This document shows positions 15,657 to 59,647 of a DNA stretch of 64,000 nt, in pieces. Source of the DNA: a virus; IMG/VR virus record IMGVR_UViG_3300030333_007705, positions 1 to 64,000 of that record; one strand, given 5' to 3'. Position numbers and translations under genes: made by a program. How positions within the stretch are numbered: position 1 is the first letter of the stretch; each line of letters begins with the position of its first letter. The notes under the pieces were generated by a model. The model searched no databases and was not told where the DNA came from. It worked only from the letters and a program-made list of their open reading frames with translations.

Positions 15657-15902
15657 TCATGTCGTTTTTTTGAAAGATTCTTCATCTTTCTTATAACCCT
15701 TTGAAATCACTATGATTTTTGATGCTGGATACCATCTGTCGTACCCATCGGGTAGATAGAGGCTCTCAGGCGGCTGCAACCACCTGACGCGATACCAGCC
15801 ACCCTTATCGACGTTCAGCACCAGCGCTGGCCCTCGTGGTTCATCCGAGAAGGGAGCCCGCAAGCGAACGAGGTCGCCAACTTCAGGCACCGACTCAGCC
15901 AT
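15657..15902 (-). CDS. Small SH3/KOW-like protein
   Basis: EVGDLVRL...YRVRW...IIVIS. Confidence 0.65.
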   Translation of the reverse strand: MAESVPEVGDLVRLRAPFSDEPRGPALVLNVDKGGWYRVRWLQPPESLYLPDGYDRWYPASKIIVISKGYKKDEESFKKTT

Positions 15903-16680: not shown

Positions 16681-16819
16681 TATAGCTCCTCTACTGTGAC
16701 TCTTGCCGTCTCTAACAGGACGTGCCAAGAATCGACTGTGAACTCGATTATCTCCACTCCCCAGAGCGCACACACAGCGATGAGCGCGGCTGCGAGGAGG
16801 AGTCTCCCGATTGTAATCA

Positions 16820-17014: not shown

Positions 17015-17197
17015 TCCTTTGTTGGGACACTTGTAATGTAGGTACGCTCTCGCGCAGGTAAACAGGCACGAGTAAAAAACTTACAAGTGCCTGGAATCTC
17101 TAGTCTTTATCTGAGATGTATTTCATTGTCACGAAGGCAGCTAGCCCCATGAGGGCATACAGGCCCAAGGCTTTGATAATCATCATGGTCCAGTCCA

Positions 17198-18490: not shown

Positions 18491-18776
18491 CGGTCGTCAT
18501 CGGTTACAGAGATAACGTAGGCACCACACCTACAGAGTAAATAAAAAAAGCAGCGAAGGGTCGATTTCTAGCAGAGCGACCGTGCTATCCTGTTTTGGTT
18601 TTTTCTTACATTCCGCACACTTACAGGCAAAAAGTGCGGGTCCATACTCTTGGCTCCATCGTCGCTGCTGGGAGCTTTTATAATAAAATCAATAAGTTAG
18701 TTGTTAGTTCATTTGAAACCTCCGTGATTCCAAAGGGTTGAGGCATCTGCTGGCCATGCCTCCCTGCGCCTGAGTC

Positions 18777-19847
18777 TTAGGACTCGGTGGACTTCCCGGT
18801 CAGGATAGCCACCAGCTTGCCAGACACCGTTTCACCGTTGTCGGCCTGCGTCTTGTGGAACGAGGTGACGTTCTCCGTGTCACCCTTGCCGAGAGCCTGC
18901 CACAGCTTCATCACAGCCTCAGAGGGCAGGGAGACGAAGTAGTTGGCAAGGTTCTTGCACTGCTCCTCGGTCATCTTCTTGTGGAAGACCTCGGTGGACT
19001 CCATCTTCTCAATGAGAGCGCAGTGCTCGTTGATATTGAAGTCGGAGGTCTTATCGACCTTGCCGTCGTCGAGGATCATCTCGACCGTGACCTGCCGCTC
19101 GTAGTTCTTCACGAAGTCGTTGAAGGACACCGCAGCCTCGAAACCGACGAAGCCAGTGGCGAGGTGGAAGATGGCGGGGTTGTGGTCCTCGACACCGAGC
19201 ATCCCAGCGGACGCGAGGCAGTCGTTGAGCCGCTTCCAAGAGCGACGCGAGGGGTAAACCTTGTTGGGCTCATAGTCCTCGTTGTGCTCCAAGTGAGAGC
19301 GGTTCTGGTTCACGAAGTCCCAGACCTCATCAGCCACGTTGCCCTTGGCCCAGGTGAGCCAGTCCTCGGTCGTGGGCTCCACGTCGAAGACGGTCCAGCG
19401 GTCAAGCTCGGCAGGGTCCATCTCGCCCACCTGATACTGCGAGCCATGCTCGCCACCGTTGACGGCAGCGATGATGACAGTATCGGGGTGAAGGTAGTTA
19501 CCGAAAATCTTGCGAGAGTCGGTAAGCTCGAAGATGCCCTGGCGCACCTCTGGAATGGCGCGGTCAACCTCATCGAGGAAGAGGAGGACTGCACGCGAGC
19601 AGGCGTCAGCCAGCCAGTCGGGCGGGCAGAAGGACGTAACGTCGCCATCCGTGCGAGGAAGGCCAACGAGGTCGCCCTCAGTCATCTGTGATGCACGTCG
19701 TTCGACGACGGGCAGGCCCATGTCGCCAGCCACCTGATAGACAAGCTCAGACTTGCCTACGCCGTGACGACCACGGAGCATGAGCGGCTTCTTGACCGCG
19801 AGGACGTGAGGGGCAACAGAAGTAAACGTCTTGAAATCGATAGCCAT
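18777..19847 (-). CDS. MoxR-family AAA+ ATPase
   Basis: Walker A GRHGVGKS, Walker B LLFLDEVDRA, MDPAELDRW, PSRRSW. Confidence 0.9.
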   Translation of the reverse strand: MAIDFKTFTSVAPHVLAVKKPLMLRGRHGVGKSELVYQVAGDMGLPVVERRASQMTEGDLVGLPRTDGDVTSFCPPDWLADACSRAVLLFLDEVDRAIPEVRQGIFELTDSRKIFGNYLHPDTVIIAAVNGGEHGSQYQVGEMDPAELDRWTVFDVEPTTEDWLTWAKGNVADEVWDFVNQNRSHLEHNEDYEPNKVYPSRRSWKRLNDCLASAGMLGVEDHNPAIFHLATGFVGFEAAVSFNDFVKNYERQVTVEMILDDGKVDKTSDFNINEHCALIEKMESTEVFHKKMTEEQCKNLANYFVSLPSEAVMKLWQALGKGDTENVTSFHKTQADNGETVSGKLVAILTGKSTES

Positions 19848-19943
19848 GATAACTCCGTGTCAGGCTAAGAGGGAACATATTTGGTGTCGGGCCTTCCGAC
19901 ATAACTAACGTAGGAACCAGATTGTGCTGGTAAACACTTTTTT

Positions 19944-20594
19944 TTACTTTCGCGACTTTTTGAGCCAACGCTCTTGAATCACTAGGGTTTCTCCTGCGCC
20001 GATAGGCAGGACAGTGTAGGACCGCGAACCCTTGGTTGCGTGCAGGACATTCTGCTCGACATCGACGATGAGCACATCCTGGCCGCGAAGGCTCGGACGT
20101 AGCGGGCTCTGCATCGAGTCTCGAATCGTGACCATCGTACCCACCGCATAGAGAGGGCTCGCCGCTGCATTCGCCATCGCTCGTTGGACGTACTTGTTCT
20201 CAACCATCTTGCGATACAGCTTTTCGGACGGTATGTAGTTGGAATCATTGATGATTCTGTCCGCCGCATCGCTGAAGTAAGGCGGGTTTGCCTTGTAGTA
20301 GTTCGCAGCGAACACCGCCTTGGTGCGCTTCTCAGGAGTCCACGACTCATTCCACGACTTGCGTGCGGCCTGGAAGGCCGGGTCGGAGTTCCTCTCGATG
20401 CGCTGATAGACCTCATGCTGCTTCGCAGTGAGTCGGCCCCACTTCTTGGCAGATTCGAGCAAGGAAGACAGGAAGTTGCGCTCCCAATCCGTCAGCGTCG
20501 AGATTCCTTTCGCAGCCGTCTTCTCAATGCGAGCGACAAGCTCAGGGTTGTTCTGTCGAGGCTGTCGATTGTAGCGTCGTCCGTAGTATCCCAT
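19944..20594 (-). CDS. Early protein with C-terminal SH3/KOW-like domain
   Basis: LTDWERNFLSSL...LTAKQ; YAVGTMVTIR; promoter at 20625-20652. Confidence 0.7.
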   Translation of the reverse strand: MGYYGRRYNRQPRQNNPELVARIEKTAAKGISTLTDWERNFLSSLLESAKKWGRLTAKQHEVYQRIERNSDPAFQAARKSWNESWTPEKRTKAVFAANYYKANPPYFSDAADRIINDSNYIPSEKLYRKMVENKYVQRAMANAAASPLYAVGTMVTIRDSMQSPLRPSLRGQDVLIVDVEQNVLHATKGSRSYTVLPIGAGETLVIQERWLKKSRK

Positions 20595-20653
20595 CGTCGT
20601 CTCCATTGTCCGGGGTACGTGTAAAACATAGGCACGGGTTTCGCTGAGTAAAG

Positions 20654-20783
20654 AAAAAAAGATAACATGGCGTCCAGTCACCACACTGGATCGATGGTTC
20701 AGCTAGCATCGTTTTCCGCCACCCGTATACGCGGGCTTGAACTAAGGGGTCGGTTCAGTATCCGCCACCATGTCATCTTGGTA
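20654..20783 (-). ncRNA. Candidate structured small RNA
   Basis: Own promoter (20789-20816), 14-bp closing stem followed by a U-tract, four internal hairpins, no convincing ORF. Confidence 0.55.
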
Positions 20784-20824
20784 TCTTTAATATAGTTACG
20801 AGAAAAAAGTAGTAAACACCTTGA

Positions 20825-21034
20825 TCAAAGTTTTTCTAAGTCCTCGACAAACATCGAGTCCCAATCCCATCGATCGTTCCACTGGACCCATACCGACCAC
20901 AGTGCCCCGTCGCGTTGGAAACAGGCGGTCGATGCCTCTTCGACCACGATGCCAAGAGCATCAGGGGGAATCTCTCCGTTGTTCCTGTGGACCTCTGGGT
21001 CATCCAGAAGTCTAACCAAATCACCTACTTGCAT
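20825..21034 (-). CDS. SH3/KOW-like cassette protein
   Basis: MQVGDLVRL...GIVV...VQW...EDLEKL. Confidence 0.75.
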   Translation of the reverse strand: MQVGDLVRLLDDPEVHRNNGEIPPDALGIVVEEASTACFQRDGALWSVWVQWNDRWDWDSMFVEDLEKL

Positions 21035-21227
21035 TGACCACCTTCAGAATGTTTGCCGCGTAAAAACCAGCGGGAGTGTATGTATCAACCCACTCGATGT
21101 AGGCTGTGGGTTGTCCGTGTGACGTGGAGCCTGTTTTAAGCACTACGCCAAGATACTTAGAGCCACGACCCAAAGTCTCGGTGGCTGAATAGTGCGACTC
21201 AAATGTAACCAAATCACCGACTTGCAC
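21021..21227 (-). CDS. SH3/KOW-like cassette protein
   Basis: MQVGDLV...VVNASR*, 14-nt overlaps. Confidence 0.75.
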   Translation of the reverse strand: MQVGDLVTFESHYSATETLGRGSKYLGVVLKTGSTSHGQPTAYIEWVDTYTPAGFYAANILKVVNASR

Positions 21228-21396
21228 TGATTATCTCCAACATGCTGTTCACTTCTAGTGTTGGGCCTGGTTCCAGCCGGTCGTCATCAGTTTCGTATGT
21301 CCACTGCACCATGCAGTGTGCGCCTAGACTCTGCACCACTAGACCACAACCCAGCCTGGGAATCTCTTTATGTTTCACTAAGTTACCGACTTTCAC
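21214..21396 (-). CDS. SH3/KOW-like cassette protein
   Basis: MKVGNLV...LEIISASR*. Confidence 0.75.
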   Translation of the reverse strand: MKVGNLVKHKEIPRLGCGLVVQSLGAHCMVQWTYETDDDRLEPGPTLEVNSMLEIISASR

Positions 21397-21553
21397 TGAT
21401 GACCCTCAACTGGCTCTGATACATATCGGCCTCGCCGTTTGGCCACTGGACTGTGGCGCGCTTGTCCAGGCTAGTAGTTCTCAAAATCTTGGCTACGATG
21501 CCCACGCCGTCTGTCTCCCAGCCTTTTTGCACAACCAAGTCACCGACTTGCAC
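21383..21553 (-). CDS. SH3/KOW-like cassette protein
   Basis: GTG start MQVGDLVV...LRVISESR*. Confidence 0.75.
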   Translation of the reverse strand: MQVGDLVVQKGWETDGVGIVAKILRTTSLDKRATVQWPNGEADMYQSQLRVISESR

Positions 21554-21695
21554 TGACGACCTCGCACTGAGATGCAACGAACCAGACCGTGTGTCCGGTG
21601 CTGGTGAGTACCCTCAAGGTGCCGCCAGCGTTTGGCCGAGATAGCACCGTGGCCATCTGTCCATTAAAATATCTAATAATATCACCGACTTTCAA
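21540..21695 (-). CDS. SH3/KOW-like cassette protein (51 aa, not in ORF track)
   Basis: TTG start MKVGDIIRYFNGQMATVL...CEVVSASR*. Confidence 0.7.
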   Translation of the reverse strand: MKVGDIIRYFNGQMATVLSRPNAGGTLRVLTSTGHTVWFVASQCEVVSASR

Positions 21696-21886
21696 CTTAC
21701 CAACTCCAAATCGCCTTCAAGGTAGCGACCAGTCAGGCGACGGGCGTGGTGAGAGATGACACTGACGTGCCAAACCTTAGTGCCCTGAGCGGCTGAAAGC
21801 CACTGCCAAGACATGAGCATCGCAAGTGTGTTTTGTGGCAAGCCGATTGAGGCTCGCTTGATTCTCACTAGATTACCGGGCTGCAC
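21692..21886 (-). CDS. SH3/KOW-like cassette protein
   Basis: MQPGNLVRI...DLELVS*. Confidence 0.7.
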   Translation of the reverse strand: MQPGNLVRIKRASIGLPQNTLAMLMSWQWLSAAQGTKVWHVSVISHHARRLTGRYLEGDLELVS

Positions 21887-22052
21887 TAACTACCTCTGCA
21901 CATCGCTTGAGTTCTCTCATGCTCATCCAAGTTGGGTTCTTGAAGTGAACGTCCTGTGTAACTAATATACGAACGTGATTGTAGTCAGTAAACTCTAAAA
22001 TCAAACCAGTGTAGTTTGTTTCAGGAAACCTAATCAAATCACCTACTTGCAC
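21873..22052 (-). CDS. SH3/KOW-like cassette protein (59 aa, not in ORF track)
   Basis: MQVGDLIRFPETNYTGLILE...AEVVSAAR*. Confidence 0.7.
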   Translation of the reverse strand: MQVGDLIRFPETNYTGLILEFTDYNHVRILVTQDVHFKNPTWMSMRELKRCAEVVSAAR

Positions 22053-22224
22053 TGATTAACTCCAAAAACGGCATCGCGCAACTTCTAGGCTCACGGTCAG
22101 GCATCATGGACCACTTGACGAGACATCGCCTAGCCTGGGGCGTCACCTCGACAATGAGCCCAACACCATACAACTCCGGTGGGGCCACGGCTGGCCTGAT
22201 AGTCACCAAGTCACCGACTTTCAC
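22039..22224 (-). CDS. SH3/KOW-like cassette protein
   Basis: MKVGDLVTI...LELISASR*. Confidence 0.75.
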   Translation of the reverse strand: MKVGDLVTIRPAVAPPELYGVGLIVEVTPQARRCLVKWSMMPDREPRSCAMPFLELISASR

Positions 22225-22267
22225 TGGCAACCTCCACGCCCCAAGGGGCTGCACAGCGCAGTCTCAC
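22211..22267 (-). pseudogene. Remnant of a deleted cassette
   Basis: 18-codon frame MRLRCAAPWGVEVASESR* between two connectors. Confidence 0.5.
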
Positions 22268-22433
22268 TGATGACTGTCACGTTTTTAGGGTCTGCATGAA
22301 TATCATGAGGGTGGTCGAATGGTCTGATTCGCCAGACTGGATAGCGCTTCGAGCCGTCGTCGATGCCGACGATGAGGCCAAACTTTTCACCATACTGCTT
22401 TGTCTTTACTTTGACTAAGTTACCGACTTTCAC
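22221..22433 (-). CDS. SH3/KOW-like cassette protein
   Basis: MKVGNLVKV...VTVISE then read-through into the remnant. Confidence 0.7.
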   Translation of the reverse strand: MKVGNLVKVKTKQYGEKFGLIVGIDDGSKRYPVWRIRPFDHPHDIHADPKNVTVISETALCSPLGRGGCQ

Positions 22434-22596
22434 TGATAACCTCCAGTTGGTTCGCGAACCTCGCGGCACGAAAGCCGTTGTCAGGATTAACAGTGACAAC
22501 CATCGTTTCGAGACTGTGTTGCACATCCACTACCAAAACAACCGGGTTGGACTCCAGTGTTTTAGATTTATATCTAACCAAGTCACCGGGCTGCAT
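22420..22596 (-). CDS. SH3/KOW-like cassette protein
   Basis: MQPGDLVRY...LEVISESR*. Confidence 0.75.
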   Translation of the reverse strand: MQPGDLVRYKSKTLESNPVVLVVDVQHSLETMVVTVNPDNGFRAARFANQLEVISESR

Positions 22597-22807
22597 TGAC
22601 AACCTCCAACTCGTCGAGAGCCATAGGATGCAAGCCATCGTGGACTTGCCCAAGGCCGGGAGCATCGCGACCCTCGCCTTCAATACCAGGGTAGTGAACT
22701 TGAATCGTCATGTCGCCATGCGCTGCGAAAATCTTTGCGGCGACGCCAACGCGACCTTTGTAGAAGCGAGCGTAACCAACATACCTTACCAAGTCACCGA
22801 CTTGCAT
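22583..22807 (-). CDS. SH3/KOW-like cassette protein (first in array 1)
   Basis: SD AGGAG, MQVGDLVRY...LEVVNAAR*; promoter at 22840-22868. Confidence 0.75.
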   Translation of the reverse strand: MQVGDLVRYVGYARFYKGRVGVAAKIFAAHGDMTIQVHYPGIEGEGRDAPGLGQVHDGLHPMALDELEVVNAAR

Positions 22808-22976
22808 GTCCATCTCCTGTGTCATCCGTGGACAACTAAAACATAGTCACGCAGTCGGGACTGGTAAAGAAAAAAAGTCTACTGCACGATGGCGTAGACG
22901 AGACTAGCTAGGCAAATCGTGCCATAAGAAACTGCAAGTGTCATCCTGTTTCTCCTTTTATTTCAATGAGTTATAG

Positions 22977-23141
22977 TTATGCCTTGAGGATGCGACTGCT
23001 GCCACAGGCAGTGCAGTTGCTCTCGCAGGCGGGGCGAGTGGGCTTGGGCTTGTTGAGGTATTTGCAACCACAAGAGCCACAGTAATAGTTGTAGGGTTCA
23101 GGCTTCGGCTTGGGTGCTGGACAGCACCAATAGCTCATAAT
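22977..23141 (-). CDS. Small Cys-rich zinc-ribbon protein
   Basis: CGSCGC...CTACGS. Confidence 0.5.
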   Translation of the reverse strand: MMSYWCCPAPKPKPEPYNYYCGSCGCKYLNKPKPTRPACESNCTACGSSRILKA

Positions 23142-23143
23142 CA

Positions 23144-23356
23144 TTAGATTACCTCTAGGTGGCTCCTTTGAAACCACCACGGTTTGCCATGTCGTTGTTG
23201 TGATGCAGACAACTCTGGACCAATAGGCTCGACGACACACTCGATGCCTATCGTCTTGACTACTAGCCCGACCCTGCCTGCTGCTTCTGTGTTGGGGTAG
23301 TCCTCGCTAATCTTTACGAGGTTGCCAACTCTTGGTTTCGGGGGTCGTCCTTCCAT
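23144..23356 (-). CDS. SH3/KOW-like protein (probably leaderless mRNA)
   Basis: RVGNLVKI...HLEVI*; ATG 7 nt from the -10 box. Confidence 0.7.
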   Translation of the reverse strand: MEGRPPKPRVGNLVKISEDYPNTEAAGRVGLVVKTIGIECVVEPIGPELSASQQRHGKPWWFQRSHLEVI

Positions 23357-23392
23357 GCTGATACCATAGGAACAGATAATGCAGAGTAAACA

Positions 23393-23782
23393 TTAAATCG
23401 AAATATGCCTGGAAATGTAAATGTTTTCAAAGCCATAGCCGCGTGTTTCGTTGTCATCCATGTCTTCGCCAACGCGAACAAACTTGAAAAGCTCCGCGTA
23501 GTTAGGAGCGTTATCGTCGTCCTTGAGGCCAAACTCCGACAGGTCTTCACACTCCAGGCCCTCGATGAACTTCTCAATCATGGCGATCTCTGGATAGCTG
23601 TCATACCACTTGACATGCTCCCAATGCATGAGCCAGTTGCCCTTGCCGTCGTAGTCGGTGTCAAGATTGTCAACGTCCCTCGTGCATAGCTTCTGCGTCT
23701 CCTCGCACTTGGCGAAAGCCGTCATCAAGGCTGGCATCAGTTCTGCATGAACTGCCAGTATTACTTCAGATCTGTATCCCAT
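23393..23782 (-). CDS. Hypothetical phage protein
   Basis: MGYRSEV...VKWYDSY...FVRVGED. Confidence 0.75.
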   Translation of the reverse strand: MGYRSEVILAVHAELMPALMTAFAKCEETQKLCTRDVDNLDTDYDGKGNWLMHWEHVKWYDSYPEIAMIEKFIEGLECEDLSEFGLKDDDNAPNYAELFKFVRVGEDMDDNETRGYGFENIYISRHISI

Positions 23783-24049
23783 TTACCATGCTCCGTTGTA
23801 AGACCAGCAGAAATCATTATCCCACTGGCACCATTCTTCATACCATCCATCGACCATCCAGACACAACATGTTGTGCCATCGTCGTACCAGTCGCACCAT
23901 TCGGGCTCCCAATAATATGGATCTTCTGTGCAATAATCAGGCGTGTAATAGACTACCACGCCGCTTGTATTTGGCACCGGCCTAGTCTCAAGCTCGACCG
24001 TGCAGCATGACAACAATAGGCACAGAGTCGCGAGAGTAAAGTTTTTCAT
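23783..24049 (-). CDS. Small Trp/Cys/Asp-rich lipoprotein
   Basis: Lipobox LLSC; WCDWYDDGTTCCVW...WCQW. Confidence 0.6.
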   Translation of the reverse strand: MKNFTLATLCLLLSCCTVELETRPVPNTSGVVVYYTPDYCTEDPYYWEPEWCDWYDDGTTCCVWMVDGWYEEWCQWDNDFCWSYNGAW

Positions 24050-25170
24050 CGACGCTCCTCCCACAGTCGCCAACCAGCCTTTGTGATGGCGTCTTCACTG
24101 TTCCTCTGTTTCTTGTGAGAGGCAAAGACCTCGCTGCCATCAGGCATACGAATGAGGTACTGTGAGCCTCGGATGTGCTCAACTACGAGCGCACCCTCAA
24201 AACCTTTCTGGGTGATGAGTGAGCCAACGAGAGCTTGTCGCTCGCGGGCAAACTGTGCCCTATCTTCAGCGGTTAGCCGTCGGTTCCTTGTTCTGTCTCT
24301 GCGTCTCATACTCTCTTCTCCGGGTAGAATCTATAGACAAGACGCCAGTGCTGGGCGCGTTCCTGCTTGGTAGCCTCATCCCAATAGAGAGACGGGGAGC
24401 TGTCATCTTCCCAAACAGCCGACGCATACTGAAGTTCATAGTCGCTGTCTTGTCGCTTGAAAATCTGAACTGCGATATTCTCCAGAACCACTTGCCCTGC
24501 ATCAACTGTATCAGTAACAAGCGAGCCAAACTTTGGGTGGTTAATATCGGGGTTAAATCGTGTCATCGAAGTCGTCCTCTTCGTCGTTCACTGGTACTAT
24601 AGGAACGCCATCAGGTAGAGTAAACCTGTCATCATCAGAAAAAACCAAATCGACTTCGCGATCTCCACTAACATCTCGTTTTTGTTCATCTTTTTTACTC
24701 CATCGAGTTATGTGGAACCATTCTTTTTCAGCCATTCGATAGCAACTTGACTTCCCAGCACTGAACCTTGTCCGGGTTGTTTTGTCGCGGACGATATTGT
24801 GGCGCCTTGAACCAGTGAACCCAGAGGTCATAGCGAGCCTGCTTTTTGCCTCCAAGCACCTTGGCGTAATGCTCTTCCAAAACATATTCCTTGTGAAGAA
24901 CCATGCCAAGTGTGTGGCACGGCTCAGGCGCATAAGCCTCAGTTACCATCGCACCGGGTTTCAATTGTTTGCAGTCTTTCATATTCATGGTGCTATGAAC
25001 TTCTCCTTCTCCTCTGAAAAGGAATCAGGCAGTGAGACTGTCTCGCCGCGCACTTGCTCCAGCTTGCAACTGTCCTCGATGTCAGCAATCATATTGTCAA
25101 CGTCTTCAAGTGCGCGTGTGATCTTGTCTTTGACGCTGCGAAGCTGTTTCAGTTTTTGTTCGTCTGTCAT
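24046..25170 (-). CDS. Run of five small coupled hypothetical genes (24046-24309, 24306-24566, 24553-24735, 24728-24988 SH3-like, 24985-25170)
   Basis: Overlapping start/stop codons; promoter at 25188-25215. Confidence 0.6.
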
Positions 25171-25218
25171 TGTCGTCTCCTGCGTGTAACATAGGCACGC
25201 TCCGTCGCGAGTAAAAAA

Positions 25219-25401
25219 CTATGCGGGCGACACGACAAAAAAACTTTTCGCCGCTTTCCACTCTTCAGGATCATCTGCCGTCACGATGAACGGACCCTTC
25301 GCATGACCTAGACTCTTTGTCACCTGAACCACCAGCTTTGATGGCAGGATGTTAGCATGGTTTTGATAAGCCTTGCTCATCACCAAGTCTCCAACTTTCA
25401 T
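25219..25401 (-). CDS. SH3/KOW-like cassette protein
   Basis: MKVGDLVM. Confidence 0.7.
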   Translation of the reverse strand: MKVGDLVMSKAYQNHANILPSKLVVQVTKSLGHAKGPFIVTADDPEEWKAAKSFFVVSPA

Positions 25402-25661
25402 TTGACTACCTCCAAGAAGTCACCGTAGTGCGAAAGCGAATCACCGCGCACTGTATTGAGATTAAAGATACCGCCCCAACCATAACCATCCTCTTCTGGT
25501 CCTGTGATTACAATCGCCAACTGACCGTCCAGATTTTCATCAAAGTTGTCATTACCGGGCGGGCGAAGCTCCTTACCGAATCCGCGACGGGGTGGTGCAT
25601 GTACGAAGCGGACCAATGTGCCAGCCGGAATGTCTTTAGGGGAGTTGCGCCAGTTCTTCAT
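25398..25661 (-). CDS. SH3/KOW-like protein
   Basis: PAGTLVRF...FLEVVK*; leaderless after promoter 25668-25695. Confidence 0.65.
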   Translation of the reverse strand: MKNWRNSPKDIPAGTLVRFVHAPPRRGFGKELRPPGNDNFDENLDGQLAIVITGPEEDGYGWGGIFNLNTVRGDSLSHYGDFLEVVK

Positions 25662-25697
25662 GCTTAAACCGTAGGAACAAAATCTAGCGAGTAAAGA

Positions 25698-25904
25698 CTA
25701 TTTTACGTGTTTGAGATCGCGGCGCACTTGGAACATCGGTTTGTCATGTCCAGACCAATGCACAGTGACATGGGTGCCTGGATGGCGTGGGACACTACTC
25801 AAGTTCTCGATGTCTGTCACCAAGCCTACCGCGCCACGAGCGGCAAAGTTGCACGTCAGCTTCTTGCCGTAAGCAGAAAGCTCAACTAAATCACCGACTT
25901 TCAC
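25698..25904 (-). CDS. SH3/KOW-like cassette protein
   Basis: MKVGDLVEL...GLVT...VHW. Confidence 0.7.
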   Translation of the reverse strand: MKVGDLVELSAYGKKLTCNFAARGAVGLVTDIENLSSVPRHPGTHVTVHWSGHDKPMFQVRRDLKHVK

Positions 25905-26079
25905 TGACAAGCTCCAGTTCCATTTCGTTCCACCAAGTCCTATCTGCTCCCGGCCAATCGACCTCGTAGTAGACTATGCCGTAGTCGTCTTCATACATAT
26001 CAATGACTATTCCATAGCCGTAGTCAACGCCAAGCATCGAAGCATCATTCTTTGGCAGAACAACATCACCGACGTTCAT
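25891..26079 (-). CDS. SH3/KOW-like cassette protein
   Basis: MNVGDVV...LELVSESR*. Confidence 0.7.
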   Translation of the reverse strand: MNVGDVVLPKNDASMLGVDYGYGIVIDMYEDDYGIVYYEVDWPGADRTWWNEMELELVSESR

Positions 26080-26296
26080 TGTCCCCACCAAGATGGATCA
26101 CCACCTGCTTCGATGAGTCGTCGAGATCAAAGGCGCTGTGCCAGCCAGACTGCTCTGGGTGCAGAAACCACTTGATGTAATATGGCTCCGGCTGGCTTCC
26201 GTGCGCGTTACTGTGGTCTACCTCAGAGACGATACCAATGTCGCCGTCAAGAATATATAGAACGTGGTCGCCTACTTTGAAGTCTGATTGCATCAT
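26066..26296 (-). CDS. SH3/KOW-like cassette protein
   Basis: FKVGDHV...GIVS...IKW; ends NERR*. Confidence 0.7.
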   Translation of the reverse strand: MMQSDFKVGDHVLYILDGDIGIVSEVDHSNAHGSQPEPYYIKWFLHPEQSGWHSAFDLDDSSKQVVIHLGGDNERR

Positions 26297-26664
26297 GGGT
26301 CCATGAGTTCTGAGAGGTTGTCTCGCCAACCGATGGCCTCGTCAACGTAGTCTCCATAAGTATCTCGCCACTTGATGCTGCCATCGAAGCACTTGATGTA
26401 GACATACTCTGGGCCTAGATCTTCCATTGAAGGATTCTGGAGTATACATGGATTGATGTAGTCATCCAGGTATTCTGTACCATGAGTCTTGATGATGCGG
26501 AAGCCTCCTCGCGGGGCAGCGAGCAAAATGTGAGTCAACAAAACGTCGTTGTCGATTGCTGCCAATGTCGGGAACATATGGCTAGGGTAGCCATCATAAT
26601 GACAGTATGTGCCAACATATGTCCCAGGCTCAGTCTCAACATAAACATTAGAGCGCGTGCCCAT
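26293..26664 (-). CDS. Hypothetical phage protein
   Basis: MGTRS...YCHYDGYP...EYVYI. Confidence 0.75.
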   Translation of the reverse strand: MGTRSNVYVETEPGTYVGTYCHYDGYPSHMFPTLAAIDNDVLLTHILLAAPRGGFRIIKTHGTEYLDDYINPCILQNPSMEDLGPEYVYIKCFDGSIKWRDTYGDYVDEAIGWRDNLSELMDP

Positions 26665-26665
26665 T

Positions 26666-26959
26666 TTATGCCTCCAAGTAGACGATGCCCGCTGGTAGCT
26701 CACCAGACACTACGCCACCGTGCTTTGCAATCACATCCAACACGGTCTGCGAGGGCACCCAACCATAGACAGTCTCAGTCAGGTTTTCCGGGTTCTCTGC
26801 GTACCTCTCCAAGAGGGGCTCAGGCTTGTTTGGGAAGCCAACCTCGACCTCATCATATGAGGCCGCGTTGTCAGACCTTGGGCTGCAATATGCGTTGCTG
26901 TTAGCTTGCACGCTCATGCTGAATCCGTCAGCGCACTTGATTCTTTTATTCTTGCTCAT
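26666..26959 (-). CDS. Hypothetical phage protein
   Basis: CADGFSMSVQA...YCSPR...VEVGFP...VYGWVP...KHGG. Confidence 0.75.
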   Translation of the reverse strand: MSKNKRIKCADGFSMSVQANSNAYCSPRSDNAASYDEVEVGFPNKPEPLLERYAENPENLTETVYGWVPSQTVLDVIAKHGGVVSGELPAGIVYLEA

Positions 26960-27143
26960 CTACAATCTCCAGCCATGCCTTGCTGTTCCATGAATAATCA
27001 GGGCAACCCGGCGGTGGGTTAATCCAATGTACCTTGTAGTCACAACCGTTCATTGGTTGGTTGCGAATGTTCACTTCTACTATAATCCCCAAACCGCTCC
27101 GGTCAAGGGCATGTGTATTATTTACTAAATCACCGACTTTCAT
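26946..27143 (-). CDS. SH3/KOW-like cassette protein
   Basis: MKVGDLVN...WLEIV. Confidence 0.7.
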   Translation of the reverse strand: MKVGDLVNNTHALDRSGLGIIVEVNIRNQPMNGCDYKVHWINPPPGCPDYSWNSKAWLEIVDEQE

Positions 27144-27294
27144 GACTCTCCACCGCTGAGTAGTCGCAGTAAATCATGCTTTCCTCTTTGGGGAACTCGA
27201 CCAACATCGTGCCTTGGTTCGCATAGAACCTAACAATCTTGCCCGCGCCATATTCCTCTCTGCCTTTCACTATGACGGTATCACCGATTTTCAT
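27130..27294 (-). CDS. SH3/KOW-like cassette protein (54 aa, not in ORF track)
   Basis: MKIGDTVIVKGREEYGAGKIV...VESHESR*. Confidence 0.7.
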   Translation of the reverse strand: MKIGDTVIVKGREEYGAGKIVRFYANQGTMLVEFPKEESMIYCDYSAVESHESR

Positions 27295-27541
27295 TTATCT
27301 TCTCTTCTTTCTGCTTGCGAGTCAGGCGCTTGAACTTGTTCTCGGCCCGCATGGCCGAGGAACGACTAGGGTGAGGCTCCAGCAAAACAATCCTCGTGGG
27401 CCTTCTTCTTCTAGTGTATTTTGCACCACGTTTGGTGTGGTTGTGTTCGTACAACCTTCTCTCCGTGTTCGTCGTTACACCAGCATAGTAAGAACCATCA
27501 GCGCACAGTAAAACATAAAACCACCAGAGATCAACTTTCAC
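27281..27541 (-). CDS. GIY-YIG nuclease (YhbQ/UPF0213-like) embedded between connectors
   Basis: FYVLLCADGSYYAGVT..RRLYEHN..GAKYTR...AMRAE...K. Confidence 0.85.
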   Translation of the reverse strand: MKVDLWWFYVLLCADGSYYAGVTTNTERRLYEHNHTKRGAKYTRRRRPTRIVLLEPHPSRSSAMRAENKFKRLTRKQKEEKINENR

Positions 27542-28250
27542 TTATTATTTCAACGTCTTCAAAGCCAAGATAAACTTGGGTGCCTTCAAAATCCACAGTC
27601 ACGACCCTGTTGATGGCCGCTGCGACAACGACACCAATCTTGTCCTCATAGCCAATGCCGCGTCGTGTCTTCCTGCTCGAAAGTCTAACCAGATCACCGG
27701 GCTTCGGCTGAGTTGACGATTTTGATTTCTGAATATCTCGCACTTCTCTTTACCCCGTTTCTCAAATCCAGCAGCCTATACATTTGCTCACCAAAGGGCA
27801 CTCCTTCTCTCGGCAGCTTTTCTAGAACAATATAGTAACGCCTTGTCTCATATAAAACAGAAACTAAATCACCCGGCTTCACTGAGAACCTCGACCCAGC
27901 CACTTGTGATAGCGCTCAGGTCCATTGGCATCGCTTCTCCGTTATTGGAGGGCCACAAGACAAGCTGGGTGCGCGACGGGCTATGAATGAGGGCACGCTC
28001 TACTAATGCGCCGACGATGATGCCAACGTCACCCTGGTCTACATCACGCACTAAGCTGCCAATCGGAATCGAGGTCATCGTGTTTCATCTCCTCAAGGCT
28101 TGCCTCTGCATAGGTGCCCTGCGTTCCTGACTCGTCGTCGAGCCATAAAATCCTGTAGTTGTTGTCGCCAAGTGAGCTTGTTACTACACCTAATGTAGAC
28201 TCCAAAACTTGACCGTCAATCTTCATGTGAACCAAATCACCAGTAATCAT
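27531..28250 (-). CDS. Four SH3/KOW-like cassette genes (27531-~27707, 27694-27882, 27869-28078, 28044-28250)
   Basis: KPGDLV, MKPGDLV, PIGSLV, MITGDLV starts; EIISES*, NSAEAR*, EVLSEAG* ends. Confidence 0.65.
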
Positions 28251-28444
28251 TTTCCCACGTCCTTCGCCATGTTGGCGCTTGAAATATACATGTAGCCGCC
28301 CTTGTTGTAGGCTGGCGCAGTGCATTTTGCCTTGAATAGAATCTGTCTTGTCGCGATGGCGTCACCGCACTCCAAGCAGGTGTTGTAGCCGAGCGCCTTG
28401 CGGCGGTCAGAATACTCATCGTCACACTTAATACAAATAGCCAC
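28247..28444 (-). CDS. DksA/TraR-type C4 zinc-finger small protein
   Basis: CIKCDDEYSDRRKALGYNTCLEC. Confidence 0.6.
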   Translation of the reverse strand: MAICIKCDDEYSDRRKALGYNTCLECGDAIATRQILFKAKCTAPAYNKGGYMYISSANMAKDVGK

Positions 28445-28463
28445 GTCGTCTCCATTGTAAAGG

Positions 28464-29018
28464 CTAGAAAGTAAGTTGTAGTTGCCGACCCTGCGGGTTG
28501 GTCTGTTCTTCCTTAACTATAGGCACCGTCATAACAAAGTCAAGCATGTCAATGTGCTTAACTCCTCTTTCGCCTGTGTCGTCTTCATAAGAGACATAGG
28601 CTGTACGATCGCCGCCCCATGCTATGGTCCTTGAGCCGTCTGCGCTTAGGGCCTGAACAACCTCAAAGAGTTCACGCTCATACATCGTGTACATCGTTTC
28701 GCCATCGTCGTCTTTGTGCCAAAACTCTTCTCCTAGCACGGCGAAAAAGTGCTCAGTCAAGTCGCGACCGTCAACCTCTTCTTCCCAATAGCAAGTCTCG
28801 CTGTATGCTTCCAGATTGCCGTTGTCGGTGTCAACGTAGAACTCAACCCAACCTTCGGGAACAGGTCGGTGCAGTTGACTTGGCTCATGCTTTCGCCAGT
28901 AGAGATAAAACCCTTCGTGGTCATAGCTGAGAAACTTGTCGCAAAAGTGTTCAATAACTTTTTCTGCTATCTCAGGCCCACACTTGGGCTTGAAGCAATA
29001 GCTTGCTAAACTTGGCAT
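28464..29018 (-). CDS. Hypothetical acidic early protein
   Basis: SD AGGAGG; promoter at 29036-29063. Confidence 0.65.
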   Translation of the reverse strand: MPSLASYCFKPKCGPEIAEKVIEHFCDKFLSYDHEGFYLYWRKHEPSQLHRPVPEGWVEFYVDTDNGNLEAYSETCYWEEEVDGRDLTEHFFAVLGEEFWHKDDDGETMYTMYERELFEVVQALSADGSRTIAWGGDRTAYVSYEDDTGERGVKHIDMLDFVMTVPIVKEEQTNPQGRQLQLTF

Positions 29019-29070
29019 GTCGTCCTCCTGCCTAAAGTATAGTTACGTGTGTGTACGAGTAAAATATTTT

Positions 29071-29489
29071 TTACCCAGAAACCTCGAACTCAGTGTCATC
29101 TAAGAGTAAAATCCTATCACCACACAAGACTCGATAAACATCTCCAGGCCAAAGATCCGCTTCCGATGGGAGTTCCTCGGAATGAAGCCCAACGATGAGT
29201 CCGTGGGTACACTTACCAAGAGCCAACTCTTCAGGGTCGTGCAGCTTGACTAGGGTGCCGATAGTGAACTTTGCAGCCATATTCCTGAATCTAGTTTATC
29301 GTCGCTGAGAATGGTGTCAACGCTTTCACTTGTTACACTTAGTTTGTCATCTGGCCACACAACAGTGACAGCCAAATACTCGCCTTCCATCGTGCTTGGT
29401 CGGTACATAAAAGGCTCGTCAGATGTTACCAATCCCCATTCAGTTTCGCCGTCCAGATTGACATAGCCGATCAAATCGCCTTTGTTCAT
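29071..29489 (-). CDS. Two SH3/KOW-like genes (29071-29280, 29250-29489)
   Basis: FTIGTLVKL; MNKGDLI. Confidence 0.6.
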
Positions 29490-29579
29490 ATTAAAAACCC
29501 ACCCTATCCCGCCGCGTTCATTCACGGCCCAACCAGTACCTACACTATAGGGACGACAATCTACAGTGTAAAGGTAGTT

Positions 29580-30362
29580 CTACCTCTGATCAACAATGTT
29601 GTTGATGACCCACTTCTCCACCTTCTTCTCATCAAGAACCTCTGGTGTGACCAGACAATCCTCGCTGAGGTCACAACGAGACAGCAGCGTGCAAGTGCTA
29701 TTGCTCGGCTGCCGATACCACTCGTCTTGAGGAATGTCATCGATGTTCAGGAACTCTGGCGGCATGTAACAACTGCCGTTAGTGTAGCTTCGGTCAGACC
29801 AAGAGTCTTTCTTGGGTACGACATACTGAAACTTGATGGCTCCTGAAATGCCGTAGAAGTATTGATCTCTAGTGATTGCATGACTGGGCGCAACAACCCC
29901 CAGGTCCACCGACTGAATGACAGCCATGATGTGCTTACCGTCCCCTTCTTGTCCGACACTGACAAGAGCACCGGGGCCGAAGCCAGCATCCAACATGCGA
30001 GAGATTACTTTCTTCCGAATGTCAAGCGTCTTCGCCAGTTGCTCTGCCGTCTGGCGCTTACGCTCAGGGCAGGTGCGTCGGGTGTGGCCCACGTCGCCGC
30101 AGAAACCACACTTGCGGTTCTGGCCGCGAGTTTCCATCTTGTGGAGTGCCTCTTTGGCGTTACGAAGGTAGCGCTCAGTGTTAGTTTTCTCCCACTCTCT
30201 GGAGAACTTGTCTTCTGCCAACTCTTTCGTGTAGCGTTCGATGTTCTCTTTAAGGTCTACCTTTCGCTTGGGGCAGGCGCTCTTGTTGTGGCCCTTCTCG
30301 TAGCAGTATCCGCAGCGCACCGTGCGCTTGTAGTTTCCGTTCTCGTCAGTAATGTATGCCAT
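29580..30362 (-). CDS. Protein with two CCHC zinc knuckles
   Basis: CGYCYEKGHNKSAC and CGFCGDVGHTRRTC. Confidence 0.8.
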   Translation of the reverse strand: MAYITDENGNYKRTVRCGYCYEKGHNKSACPKRKVDLKENIERYTKELAEDKFSREWEKTNTERYLRNAKEALHKMETRGQNRKCGFCGDVGHTRRTCPERKRQTAEQLAKTLDIRKKVISRMLDAGFGPGALVSVGQEGDGKHIMAVIQSVDLGVVAPSHAITRDQYFYGISGAIKFQYVVPKKDSWSDRSYTNGSCYMPPEFLNIDDIPQDEWYRQPSNSTCTLLSRCDLSEDCLVTPEVLDEKKVEKWVINNIVDQR

Positions 30363-30410
30363 TGGGTCGTCCTCCTGTGGCTTTCGGGTACATCTAAACT
30401 ATAGTCACGC

Positions 30411-30936: not shown

Positions 30937-31019
30937 GTAGACATTATAATCACTTGCGCGTGTCAGTAAAGAACTTGCGTGACCGCGAGCACAAAACTAT
31001 GGCGTATGCCAGCATAAAA

Positions 31020-31481: not shown

Positions 31482-31506
31482 TGTAAAATAAATAGCTCCG
31501 AAAAAG

Positions 31507-32691: not shown

Positions 32692-32696
32692 TCACC

Positions 32697-58525: not shown

Positions 58526-59647
58526 CTACTCAGAATCAATATTATAGAAATCGCTAGCTTTGCCTTCCTTGTTGTCGAAACGCATGATGATCTCCTCATC
58601 CATAATCTGGAGCACTCTGGACTTGAATTTTTCATCTTTTAGCTTTTCTTTCCACTTTGCAGCTTGAAACTTGTCAACACTCCCATCTTCATATACAAGG
58701 TTATACCAAGCCCCAGCTTGCTTTAGATTATCCGATCCCTTGATTGCCTCAAGCCAGCTTTCTTCGTCCTGAATGCCAACATCGCCGCCCCACATAATTT
58801 TAAATGTGCATTGGCGACCCTCAGTGCCAAAGCGACTTTTCTTTAAAGTAACTTTAACTTCTGATCCAACTCGGTAACCATTTTCATCAACAATAAAAGA
58901 CGCCTTGGCCTTCCTCTTAGTTAGCCAGATACGCAAAGAATAAGCGTAATGCATCGCCTTGCCTCCGGGCGTGACATAGGGAGTGGTCATCGCCTCCGCG
59001 ACGTTGCTAGTAATGTTGGTCTTAAGCTGATTCAAAACCAAGAACGTTGATTCAGATGCAGCGATTGGCACGGTCAGCTTTGACATGCCTTTTGCAAGAA
59101 TTCTTGGCTTAACAGCCATCGAGGACTGTGGGTTAAAGTCTCCTTCAACGTCGCTAATTGAAGGAGTAAGCGCCAGCGAGTCCCAAATAAACAACATTCT
59201 GTTATCGTTTGAGCCTAGTAGCTCTTCAATTGTCTCCAGCACATATTCAACGCTGGGCGGCTGTAGATATAGGATATTGTCAACGTCGCAGCCTGCGCTG
59301 GCTAAAAATTCAGGATCAATAGCTGATTCTGAATCAAAGTATACAACGTCAATGCCCAGCTTTTGAGCATTCGCAGCAATTTGTGCTGCCATATAAGACT
59401 TACCTGAGCCTTCAAGTCCAGCGATTTCTACGATCTTTCCGACCGGAACTCCAGCTAGATGGCCCCTGCAGATAACACTATCAAGCCAGCGTGACCCCGT
59501 TGAAATCCACTCCTTGACTTGTGTTGGGTTGTCTTTTGTCAGGTCAAAAGCAACCTCTCTGCCTGATTTTTTGTTAATAAGATCTCGCATTTCGCCAATG
59601 CTCAAACGACCTAGTTTTTTCGCTTTCTTAGCCACACCTTCCTCCAT
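58526..59647 (-). CDS. recA: RecA/UvsX recombinase
   Basis: ISTGS..LD, GLEGSGKS, YFDSE, IWDS, LNQ, TPGGKA. Confidence 0.92.
   Translation of the reverse strand: MEEGVAKKAKKLGRLSIGEMRDLINKKSGREVAFDLTKDNPTQVKEWISTGSRWLDSVICRGHLAGVPVGKIVEIAGLEGSGKSYMAAQIAANAQKLGIDVVYFDSESAIDPEFLASAGCDVDNILYLQPPSVEYVLETIEELLGSNDNRMLFIWDSLALTPSISDVEGDFNPQSSMAVKPRILAKGMSKLTVPIAASESTFLVLNQLKTNITSNVAEAMTTPYVTPGGKAMHYAYSLRIWLTKRKAKASFIVDENGYRVGSEVKVTLKKSRFGTEGRQCTFKIMWGGDVGIQDEESWLEAIKGSDNLKQAGAWYNLVYEDGSVDKFQAAKWKEKLKDEKFKSRVLQIMDEEIIMRFDNKEGKASDFYNIDSE

Follow-up and report, generated by a model that had tools for sequence, protein, structure and literature searches.

Whole-gene variation at a conserved coding connector in arrays of small barrel-protein genes of large uncultured marine phages

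Integrons are gene-cassette arrays with IntI, attI and attC, and poxvirus accordions are a further case of gene turnover by unequal crossing-over. In T4-type phages, PeSL (promoter-early stem-loop) shuffling acts at a short motif between small non-essential genes of a plastic region, and indels or replacements between close relatives end in this motif (Arbiol et al. 2010, PMC2839356; Comeau et al. 2014, PMC4122927). Phage homologous recombination, which needs less than 50 bp, is thought to be responsible, a dedicated recombinase is not known, and mini-circles have been shown for PeSLs (PMC2839356; PMC4122927). PeSLs lie between genes and act as regulatory cassettes of promoter and terminator; they insulate the transcription of each ORF, and the ORFs themselves are ORFans with no relation to one another (PMC2839356; PMC4122927). 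T4 tifA amplification is an example of tandem gene turnover, or 'genomic accordions' (PMC9391042).

PeSL shuffling is the closest published analogue of the arrays described here, which lie in a 74,015-bp contig; the window that we analyzed is a stretch of 64,000 nucleotides (IMG/VR record IMGVR_UViG_3300030333_007705, positions 1 to 64,000). As with PeSLs, a short repeated motif lies between small genes, and indels or replacements between close relatives end in it. However, the arrays have no intergenic space, their repeat codes in two frames and bears the Shine-Dalgarno (SD), the start and the stop, and it preserves translation where the PeSL preserves transcription; moreover, the cassettes are paralogs of one fold. 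A PeSL-type promoter and stem-loop terminator flanking each ORF were not found, the genes overlapping by 14 nt; in the window, promoter-like sites are scattered with none tied to junctions, and junctions have no terminator-like site. In accordions, too, homologous recombination between repeated genes alters copy number in arms races, but an accordion multiplies near-identical copies, which can recombine at any point, whereas the arrays confine crossovers to a 32-nt block, because their copies share about 22% identity and have mosaic ends, and thus yield different genes and not dosage.

This fragment of a large uncultured marine phage holds about two dozen tiny barrel-protein genes (Table 1). 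In the window, the minus strand from 20825 to 27882 carries 18 genes of 51 to 74 aa, in line with the original prediction of about 20 tiny genes with a common start motif. Their N termini read M(K/Q/N)(V/P/I)G(D/N)(L/I/T/V)(V/I), the exception being the gene that starts with GTG at 27743, in which an extension places the motif 12 residues downstream. Scanning every frame of the whole contig gave 18 occurrences of the peptide motif, all on the minus strand from 21031 to 27879, and none outside. The gene 26066-26329 is likewise N-terminally extended, the middle-only score of the outlying member exceeds 199 of 200 shuffles, and the gene 25398-25661 was not detected by the family profile search, though it is family-like by eye. 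One cassette of array I survives as a remnant that keeps the connector head and the full connector tail but has lost its body; the frame of the gene upstream (22221-22433) continues through the remnant and stops in a GTGA overlap of 4 nt. Because the region is dense in sigma70-like promoters (19 of 20 promoter-like sites on the gene strand, 2x shuffle expectation), the array genes are probably early.

Table 1. Coordinates of the arrays, junctions and associated genes
Feature	Coordinates	Strand	Remarks
Outlying family member	15657..15890	(-)	5 kb from arrays; i-E 1.4e-5
Conserved flanking gene, 246 aa	19944..20684	(-)	15 loci, 30-86% identity
Array I	20825..22807	(-)	11 chained family genes and one remnant; family profile i-E 7e-11 to 2e-2
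Array I genes, first six	22583-22807, 22420-22596, 22221-22433, 22039-22224, 21873-22052, 21692-21886	(-)	
Array I genes, last five	21540-21695, 21383-21553, 21214-21396, 21021-21227, 20825-21034	(-)	
Remnant cassette	22211..22267	(-)	18-codon ORF (GTG...WGVEVASESR-stop), read directly in sequence
Isolated family member between the two arrays	23144..23356	(-)	N-terminal extension; i-E 1.7e-4
Array II, distal part	25219..26329	(-)	Family genes 25219-25401, 25698-25904, 25891-26079, 26066-26329
Family genes 26946-27143 and 27130-27294	26946..27294	(-)	Family profile
Stand-alone GIY-YIG nuclease domain gene, 86 aa	27281..27541	(-)	Pfam PF01541; inside array
Array II, proximal part	27531..28325	(-)	27531-27743, 27694-27882, 27869-28078, 28044-28325; i-E 2e-8 to 4e-3
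14-nt overlap stops, first eight	21021, 21214, 21383, 21540, 21873, 22039, 22211, 22420	(-)	
14-nt overlap stops, last seven	22583, 25891, 26066, 27130, 27281, 27694, 27869	(-)	
Variant junctions	21692, 22221, 25398; 27531	(-)	4-nt overlap at the first three; 11-nt overlap at 27531
Phage RecA	58526..59647	(-)	Pfam PF00154, E 7e-38

The middles of these genes had been described as unrelated, which turned out to be wrong: most are detectably homologous, and the genes form one paralog family with one fold. With middles taken as the proteins minus their first 8 and last 9 residues, 10 of 18 outscored at least 98-99% of their own shuffles in a leave-one-out profile, and 12 of 17 did so with an independent profile built from 742 non-window middles. 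Two AF2 models, of the pair 21383-21553 (pLDDT 92) and 21692-21886 (pLDDT 86), each have five strands, so that a typical and a very divergent member are predicted to fold alike, as the five-strand SH3/KOW-like barrel that had been proposed. The models superpose on KOW/SH3/Tudor domains, and their best structural matches are small five-strand barrels (NusG and Spt5 KOW, PcrA/UvrD and Mfd Tudor-like, NdhS, PsaE). For the two models, Z values reached 8.1 and 7.2 with Spt5 KOW (best VIA-align match Z 8.1, rmsd 2.0, 53 aligned), 7.0 and 8.1 with NusG KOW, 7.4 and 8.7 with the Hpy99I N-domain (VIA-align Z 8.7, rmsd 1.4, 53 aligned) and 6.7 and 8.0 with NdhS, while the Foldseek TM against the eS4 KOW domain was 0.74-0.78; by the tool's own scale, Z of 7-8.7 is common among small folds, and the function of the proteins does not follow from it. 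At the N terminus, a G-D-x-V strand and the G-x-G-h-V after it are reminiscent of the KOW motif, but the array proteins stand alone at about 60 aa, and KOW (PF00467) gave no match at E<=1 in the 9 members searched. No Pfam family matched these members at E<=0.1, the one GPKOW_C match (E 0.14) being far under its cut-off.

The family is large, with at least 1,459 cluster representatives (50%-identity clusters, public data) at E<=1e-3, and 1,025 of its domains in 130 loci supplied 423 unique 14-nt junctions. A scan with the connector motif found it confined to the array region in the contig and widespread in IMG/VR, where its exact 23-nt core is present in at least 120 stretches. Five records of 180-293 kb were tested, four of them complete; all have DnaE and RecA in common, and each contains 12-20 members.

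The connector itself proved to be a coding element. In the window, gene n+1 overlaps the end of gene n, stop codon included, by 14 nt at 15 junctions; this confirmed every connector copy originally listed, although the stop at 22211 belongs to the remnant and to no full gene. The Gly-Asp/Asn codons (GGT GAY / GGT AAY) create the stop TGA/TAA, and the S-E/A-S/A-R tail is the other-frame reading of M-K/Q-V/P-G. As expected, the junction serves three purposes at once: it encodes the last strand of gene n, supplies the GGAGG ribosome site and contains the start/stop overlap. The 32-nt consensus had 8 matches at <=3 mismatches against 0 in 100 shuffles, and the logo of the 423 junctions shows sharp conservation edges at -12 and +20. 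GGAG or GAGG lies at -15..-4 in 366 of these 423, 97% of the Glu codons within the SD are GAG versus 47% in the background, and GTG starts account for 61% in overlaps versus 16% without overlap (p 5e-30), which indicates that the upstream frame shapes the downstream start. An overlap with an SD inside the upstream gene is the layout of translationally coupled overlapping genes, and to judge from this layout neighboring genes may be so coupled.

Whole genes had been expected to be inserted, deleted or reordered in frame at the connectors, and the alignment of orthologous arrays, fetched with the 246-aa flanking gene as anchor, agrees with this. In the near-identical genome pairs L121/L122 (96%), L008/L010 (99.7%), L098/L102 (99%) and L033/L060 (99%), all seven cassette-size indels end inside a connector (binomial p 4e-5), with every joint within -16..+24 of a family start and 16-40 nt shared. 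Identity between L121 and L122 steps at connectors (95 to 89% and 90 to 98%), and the block 25401-26669 is missing in both of these closest relatives of the window; around 27130-27294, relatives have additional cassettes on both sides, and the aligned segments share about 20 nt at the connector. At larger distances the order is lost: a homologous downstream neighbor is kept by 55 of 66 cassette pairs at >=95% identity, 12 of 40 at 80-95% and 3 of 90 at 60-80%, a drop from 83% to 3%. Of the window cassettes, seven have orthologues in L123 and four in L124 with a middle identity of >=48% (nine and six when matches down to 39% are counted), and these stand in scrambled order between flanks that remain collinear. 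These comparisons rest on metagenome assemblies, and some cassette orders depend on the original assemblers, because short-k unitigs break at connectors; at k=31, joints with 21-33 nt sides are indistinguishable from unrelated cassettes sharing a connector.

The arrays are probably best explained as a diversified family of stand-alone SH3/KOW-like barrel genes, head to tail on one strand, that is shuffled by homologous recombination at the conserved connector. The DNA for the first strand (MKVGDLV), read one base earlier, also gives the S-E-S-R tail and stop of the preceding gene, whose last strand (L-E-V-I-S) provides the ribosome site. According to this explanation, two overlapping protein frames, the Shine-Dalgarno and the start context would form three layers of selection that are the main reason why the block, about 32 nt from -12 to +20 relative to the start, stays constant, while the middles would be free to diverge. 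Crossovers would then fall at the connector and almost nowhere else, because it is the sole long identical DNA between neighboring or foreign cassettes. General homologous recombination by phage RecA or replication-linked annealing would delete, insert, swap or relocate one whole gene per event, with frame, ribosome site and overlap intact. The extra cassettes in the indel pairs are no fresh duplicates, which makes loss by direct-repeat recombination the only easily explained event; for gain and reordering, donors or circles would be required, and none were observed.

It is also possible, although we consider it rather unlikely, that the connector itself is selected as a recombination module for in-frame cassette exchange on general recombination, its DNA identity being kept beyond the needs of proteins and translation through selfish spread of consensus-connector cassettes or through second-order selection via faster-adapting lineages. 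Synonymous sites are indeed partly conserved beyond protein needs (SD GAG, AAA, GTC, GGT), and the nucleotide conservation exceeds what protein and SD constraints fully explain: without an overlapping upstream frame, GTC is still used at 61% (background 21%, and 5% at Val7) and GGT at 69% (background 29%). The joints sit in the sole uninterrupted identical run of 17-20 nt (start to +17/+20), the same core occurs in phages with DnaE only 40% identical, one cassette has 95% amino-acid identity in its middle between genomes with 63% identity in the flanking gene, and a foreign GIY-YIG gene lies between connector-like ends. However, the third-codon sites -5 and +20 are free, which makes the conservation codon-structured, a pattern of codon-wise selection and not of homogenization of a DNA module, and neither circles nor intermediates were seen. 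The residual GTC/GGT bias fits selection on the DNA itself, but also frequent moves of genes between overlapped (majority) and non-overlapped contexts.

A dedicated integron-like system, in which a recombinase recognizes the connector and excises or inserts cassettes, is largely refuted and seems highly unlikely. The arrays do resemble integrons in their same-orientation small genes, their repeated junction, and a number and order that vary by whole units through gain, loss and reordering, and a nuclease gene lies among them. Yet neither the contig (41% complete) nor any of five relatives (four 100% complete, one near-complete) matched tyrosine recombinase (PF00589), while all control genomes did, and the contig had no serine recombinase (PF00239) match; the original prediction of no visible integrase thus stands, whereas its term "integron-like" does not. 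Ten connectors folded as ssDNA gave no attC-like hairpin (MFE -1.5 to -7.9 kcal/mol; z-scores -2.5 to +1.0, seven of ten between -1.2 and +1.0), and the sole recurrent element among them is a weak ATCA/TGAT stem of 4-5 bp. With no integrase, no folded site, and junctions in coding sequence, the array is not an integron, and joints within identical stretches of variable length (16-40 nt) point to homologous instead of site-specific exchange, so ordinary homologous recombination on an identical block of 17-40 nt is the likely mechanism. The RecA that had been suggested to act is present in the contig and is a candidate general recombinase for the connectors.

The nuclease gene matches the GIY-YIG profile PF01541 (E 5.1e-17; 62.4 bits versus a cut-off of 22.6) and is the sole foreign cargo in an otherwise one-family array. 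It starts with GTG AAA GTT GAT, the connector head minus the Gly codon, and ends in NENR-stop with the standard 14-nt overlap with the next family gene. Homologues adjoin family genes in 8 distinct loci, but the gene is found in only 3 of the 5 relative genomes and is missing from the other 2, which bear arrays all the same, and this speaks against the integron-like system.

Still less probable is a role of the overlap in programmed frameshifting or read-through, in which a +1 shift near the rare CGG and the stop would produce multi-barrel fusions. In all 458 units the length is 1 mod 3, which places gene n+1 at +1 to gene n without exception; the codon preceding the stop is CGG, the rarest Arg codon (7% background), natural in-frame two-domain fusions exist (P0013, P0105), and repeat proteins with many such barrels occur elsewhere. 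But a slippery sequence is absent, a shift from CGG to GGT re-pairs poorly, each gene comes with an SD and a start codon of its own, the SD distance suits initiation and not a prfB-type shift, and first-in-array genes keep the same N terminus without an upstream frame. An equally improbable origin of the apparent indels and reorderings is mis-joining by metagenome assemblers at the repeated connector, where k=31 unitigs do break or branch, since the identical run of 17-40 nt is below read length and below the last k that common assemblers use, two independent studies contain 96-97% of the window's words with unitigs that span the junctions at 21695, 21886, 22224, 22433, 22596, 25401, 25904 and 26079 unchanged, and the variants come from different samples, each an intact in-frame array.

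Shuffling of the barrel genes at the connector would give these uncultured marine phages of 180-293 kb a fast-turnover repertoire of small putative binders, which may serve in host takeover or counter-defence. The arrays would then represent a counterpart, within coding sequence, of the repeat-mediated shuffling of genes in T4-type phages.

The window (64 kb) belongs to a viral contig of 74,015 bp whose completeness CheckV estimates at 41%. Nearly all of its genes lie on the minus strand, and those between 20825 and 28325 are very small. A six-frame scan of the whole contig with [KQNS][VPI]G[DN][LITV][VI] gave 18 matches, all on the minus strand at 21031-27879, and no further match anywhere else in the contig. 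The motif stands directly after the start codon in 17 of them, and the remaining one (27531-27743) carries a 12-residue extension. With a sensitive family profile, which added members with longer N-termini (see the table), the window total came to about 24 family members.

These genes are joined by a dual-coding block of about 32 nt, hereafter the connector. The junction runs ...T-G-GAG-GTn-ATC-A and continues from the downstream start as GTG-AAA-GTC-GGT-GAy-TTg-GTn; the upstream gene reads this DNA in the frame one base earlier as L-E-V-I-S-E-S-R-stop, its stop arising from the Gly-Asp (GGT GA) or Gly-Asn (GGT AA) codons. The tail variants SASR, SAAR, NASR and NESR are other-frame images of the changes K to Q, V to P and GTG to ATG. 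The overlap measures 14 nt at 15 window junctions, 4 nt at three (stops 21692, 22221 and 25398) and 11 nt at one (27531), and the 32-nt consensus has eight matches at up to 3 mismatches versus none in 100 shuffles. The extracted junctions, with their 15 fixed 14-nt overlaps, bear out the dual-coding arrangement claimed in the original prediction. At least 120 IMG/VR stretches contain an exact copy of the connector's 23-nt core, TCARTGMAAGTCGGTGAYTTRGT, and single stretches have as many as 10.

Coordinates of family members with longer N-termini and of other genes in the window
Feature	Coordinates	Remark
Family member	15657-15890	longer N-terminus, sensitive profile
DUF2201 metallopeptidase/VWA protein	17198-18490	in GC-rich island
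MoxR-type AAA ATPase	18777-19847	in GC-rich island
Family member	23144-23356	longer N-terminus, sensitive profile
Family member	26066-26329	longer N-terminus, sensitive profile
Family member	27869-28078	longer N-terminus, sensitive profile
Family member	28044-28325	longer N-terminus, sensitive profile
tRNA-Arg(TCT), tRNA-Met(CAT), tRNA-Leu(TAA)	32615-34364	
UvdE UV endonuclease	33244-34173	
GroEL-type chaperonin	38801-40420	
IMPDH/GMP-reductase family enzyme	44388-45413	
DnaE-type Pol III alpha with PHP domain	46466-49897	
Class II ribonucleotide reductase	53442-55298	

A conserved gene of 246 aa that lies downstream of the array served to collect 15 orthologous loci. The closest, L121 and L122, show about 85% identity to the window in the flank. 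They have in common with the window the GIY-YIG gene and the genes 27130-27294, 26946-27143, 25219-25401 and 20825-21034, and lack 25401-26669 and most of array I (20825-22807). Gene 27130-27294 is flanked in both by additional cassettes, and there the pieces of the alignment share about 20 nt at the connector. Between L121 and L122, at 96% mutual identity, three indels of a single cassette were seen; four more came from the pairs L008/L010 (99.7%), L098/L102 (99%) and L033/L060 (99%). All seven indels in these four near-identical pairs have their joints at the connector, with alignment pieces overlapping by 4-40 nt (16-40 nt in all but one) across the family start codon, at positions 0..+17, -3..+17, -1..+17, 0..+20, -16..+24, 0..+17 and +1..+5. 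An identical ATGAAAGTCGGTGATTT run lies on both flanks of each extra cassette, and the chance of seven connector joints, if the ends were random in 170-nt units, is about 4e-5. Because no near-identical copy of an extra cassette was found in its own locus, these are not fresh duplications, and each indel may be a loss or a gain.

L123 and L124, whose flank genes are about 63% identical to those of the window, hold seven and four orthologues of window cassettes, respectively, at 48% or higher middle identity (nine and six when matches down to 39% are counted), and their cassette order is thoroughly altered relative to the window while the flanks are still collinear. Across all loci, the downstream neighbor was homologous in 55 of 66 cassette pairs with middle identity of at least 95%, in 12 of 40 at 80-95%, in 3 of 90 at 60-80% and in 4 of 161 at 40-60%. 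Identity between L121 and L122 also changes abruptly at connectors, dropping from 95% to 89% and rising from 90% to 98%, the mark of a block that came in from a more distant relative. In L033/L060, a cassette enclosed by two connectors has just 73% identity although the flank is 99.6% identical, which looks like a replacement and not an indel. The 18-codon remnant at 22211-22267, consisting of connector head and tail with the body missing, indicates that some events bypass the connector.

Assembly error is an unlikely source of the indels and reordering, since the identical run is shorter than the reads and the unitigs of two independent studies cross eight window junctions unchanged. The Logan contigs (k=31) contain many joints of non-adjacent connectors with sides of only 21-33 nt, which were not counted, because unrelated cassettes sharing a connector would also give such sides. 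One contig, from an estuary relative, has 27142 joined to 27280 (side of 45 nt), a mere hint of a version without gene 27130-27294. Taken together, the seven joints, the scrambled orthologue order and the rapid decay of neighbor conservation support the proposed exchange of whole genes at connectors.

In order to see what conserves the connector, we examined 130 loci, which contain 1,025 family domains; their junctions amount to 891 unique contexts, 423 of them with the 14-nt overlap. Start-to-start length equals 1 mod 3 in all 458 units with this overlap (median, 169 nt), and the connector logo is sharply bounded at -12 and +20. The identical logo in 268 junctions outside the search pattern and in 38 junctions from flank-gene loci means that it was not created by ascertainment. 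Conservation is codon structured, with the third position free in the Val of L-E-V (-5) and in Val7 (+20). The Glu of L-E-V, which forms the GGAGG ribosome site, is GAG in 97% of cases versus 47% in gene middles (p 6e-86); Lys2 is AAA in 91% versus 49%; and Val3 is GTC in 86% versus 21% in the background and 5% at Val7. GTG is the start codon at 61% of overlapped junctions and at only 16% of those without an open upstream frame (p 5e-30), so the downstream start codon is dictated by the Ser (AGT) of the upstream protein. Inside the overlap class, a test of GGT against the stop is circular, as that stop defines the class, and the non-overlap classes alone were used. Where the upstream frame is closed, GTC still reaches 61% (background, 21%) and GGT 69% (background, 29%), with p of about 1e-25 each. 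Therefore, the two protein frames and the translation signals explain most, not all, of the block: the synonymous choice at the SD GAG, AAA, GTC and GGT is in part more fixed than the proteins demand. The residue fits frequent gene movement between overlapped and non-overlapped positions; alternatively, it fits selection acting on the DNA itself.

The middles of the proteins had been taken as unrelated, which our analysis does not support. By eye, their shared second strand reads G-h-G-h-h-h and their shared third strand h-V-x-W. After trimming the first 8 and last 9 residues, we scored each against a profile of the others, and 10 of the 18 window middles exceeded at least 98 of 100 shuffles; with an independent profile of 742 middles from other contigs, close homologues left out, 12 of 17 exceeded at least 199 of 200. 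AlphaFold2 predicted five strands for a typical member, 21383-21553 (pLDDT 92), and an unchanged strand order for the most aberrant one, 21692-21886 (pLDDT 86, own subfamily alignment). These two models, respectively, matched Spt5 KOW (Z 8.1 and 7.2), NusG KOW (7.0 and 8.1), the Hpy99I N-terminal domain (7.4 and 8.7) and NdhS (6.7 and 8.0), and both also retrieved Tudor and PWWP domains; Foldseek gave a TM of 0.74-0.78 to the eS4 KOW domain. Such Z values, at a level common for small folds, fix only the fold class of the models and carry no functional information. The predicted structures thus agree with the SH3/KOW-like barrel first suggested. A reading of 21692-21886 as a gene with two connector tails proved wrong, as the gene falls in a longer subfamily with a conserved RRYLExDLEVIS. 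In two database proteins of 126-127 aa, P0013 and P0105, a pair of family barrels is naturally fused in frame, and in one of them a mutated connector reads through (...LEVVKQVKVGDLV...), so junction mutations are able to yield tandem-domain proteins.

The integron-like system of the original prediction was not supported: the contig yielded neither a tyrosine nor a serine recombinase, five relatives (four complete, one near-complete) had no tyrosine recombinase, the connectors formed no consistent hairpin on folding and Rfam gave no match in 19500-30500. The sole foreign gene in the chain encodes a protein of 86 aa with a GIY-YIG domain (Pfam E 5e-17). It opens with GTG AAA GTT GAT, resembling the connector head minus the Gly codon, ends in the standard overlap with the next family gene and adjoins family genes at every occurrence (8 loci). 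As a driver of shuffling it was rejected, because it is missing from two of five array-bearing genomes, both complete; it is cargo or an independent neighbor, not the engine. The phage encodes a RecA at 58526-59647. The engine is probably general homologous recombination, or annealing during replication, with the sole identical DNA of the diverged paralogs as substrate. Recombination of the connectors on either side of a cassette would delete it and release a circle, and exchange with a circle or a co-infecting relative would insert or replace one. Because the block carries stop, SD and start, every exchange product would be a legal chain. We infer this recombination pathway, as well as translational coupling and an early timing of the arrays.

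As to timing, 19 of 20 sigma70-like sites in 19500-30500 share the strand of the genes, double the number expected from shuffles, which suggests that the arrays may be early. A promoter-like TTTAC(A/T)-N16-TATA(G/T)T recurs on the minus strand of this region, suggestive of many host-sigma70-type starts across the small genes. Directly following array I, a promoter-like TTTACT-N16-TATATT (20816-20789) is separated by about 100 nt without an ORF from a terminator with a 9-bp stem and T-run (20687-20664), and Rfam gave no match to this stretch (20664-20816). A GC-rich island at 14001-20000 has 56-59% GC versus 40-47% over most of the contig; the arrays have about 50%.

Searched with the family profile at E<=1e-3, 1.84 billion cluster representatives yielded at least 1,459 family clusters at 50% identity, most representatives being proteins of 50-75 aa ending in ...EVISESR, along with a few natural two-domain fusions; remote matches were eukaryotic Mind-bomb SH3 and Tudor repeat proteins. 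The source annotation of the matches gave only "hypothetical protein" and no Pfam domain. For the small proteins of the window, Pfam, PHROGs and NCBIfam returned nothing usable, ESM Atlas only "hypothetical protein" clusters, and BFVD only unnamed viral proteins, all with E above 1e-3. Five large host records (180-293 kb; three with terminal repeats, four at 100% by CheckV) each hold 12-20 members, mainly in one or two clusters, and all five encode RecA and a DnaE with 40-78% identity to that of the window. No named relative emerged from megablast of the array against INPHARED or from tblastn of one family member at 1e-3, and the window DnaE reached at most 31% identity to cultured phages, none being close. 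Within 29000-36900, DNA similarity to cultured phages is confined to the tRNA-Arg/Met/Leu genes. The UvdE, GroEL-type, IMPDH/GMP-reductase, DnaE and ribonucleotide reductase genes (see the table) belong to the auxiliary and replication genes of the phage. Sequencing runs containing the window are marine metagenomes. The core also occurs in eight marine MAG contigs from seven unrelated phyla or orders, most simply mis-binned phage DNA that points to no host. NHDW01000006.1 (305,838 bp, labelled Methylococcaceae MAG) carries the core and is perhaps the whole genome of a large phage that was assigned to a bacterium in binning.

The closest described phenomenon is shuffling by promoter-early stem-loops (PeSLs) in T4-type phages (PMC2839356, PMC4122927). 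Both share a short repeated motif, junction-bounded indels in close relatives and the lack of a dedicated recombinase. However, PeSLs lie between genes, as cassettes of promoter and terminator that surround unrelated ORFans (PMC2839356, PMC4122927), whereas the connector is a dual-frame coding overlap within one paralog family. Unequal crossing-over in tandem families ("genomic accordions") is alike, but here crossover is limited to a 32-nt block between otherwise dissimilar genes. Our literature search found no description of the family or junction, an absence that is not proof of none existing.

The connector extends the linker/PeSL view of modular phage evolution from intergenic regulatory DNA to overlapping coding sequence. 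Since the only recombinogenic DNA also holds the stop, ribosome site and start, all crossover products are expressible, a clean natural case of a small-protein repertoire turned over gene by gene without the operon ever being broken. The family is large, without a Pfam, PHROG or NCBIfam model, and is a hallmark of an uncultured marine lineage of 180-290 kb phages, which the 23-nt pattern, as a practical marker, pulls out of metagenomes. A bolder and rather doubtful reading is that the connector is a self-maintaining exchange module, in which cassettes with consensus DNA would hop in frame and translation ready among positions and co-infecting phages of the lineage, synonymous conservation would reflect selection for mobility, and the phages would share a library of thousands of mini-binders; if true, it would give an integron-like outcome without a dedicated recombinase. 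Whether the proteins are small single-domain binders in a fast-turnover repertoire, most likely directed against host or rival-phage molecules, we regard as evenly balanced. Numerous diverged single-domain barrels that are rapidly replaced are what one expects of genes for host interaction or counter-defence, and therefore the family is a reasonable pool for screening when a host, or a system for expression, has been selected.
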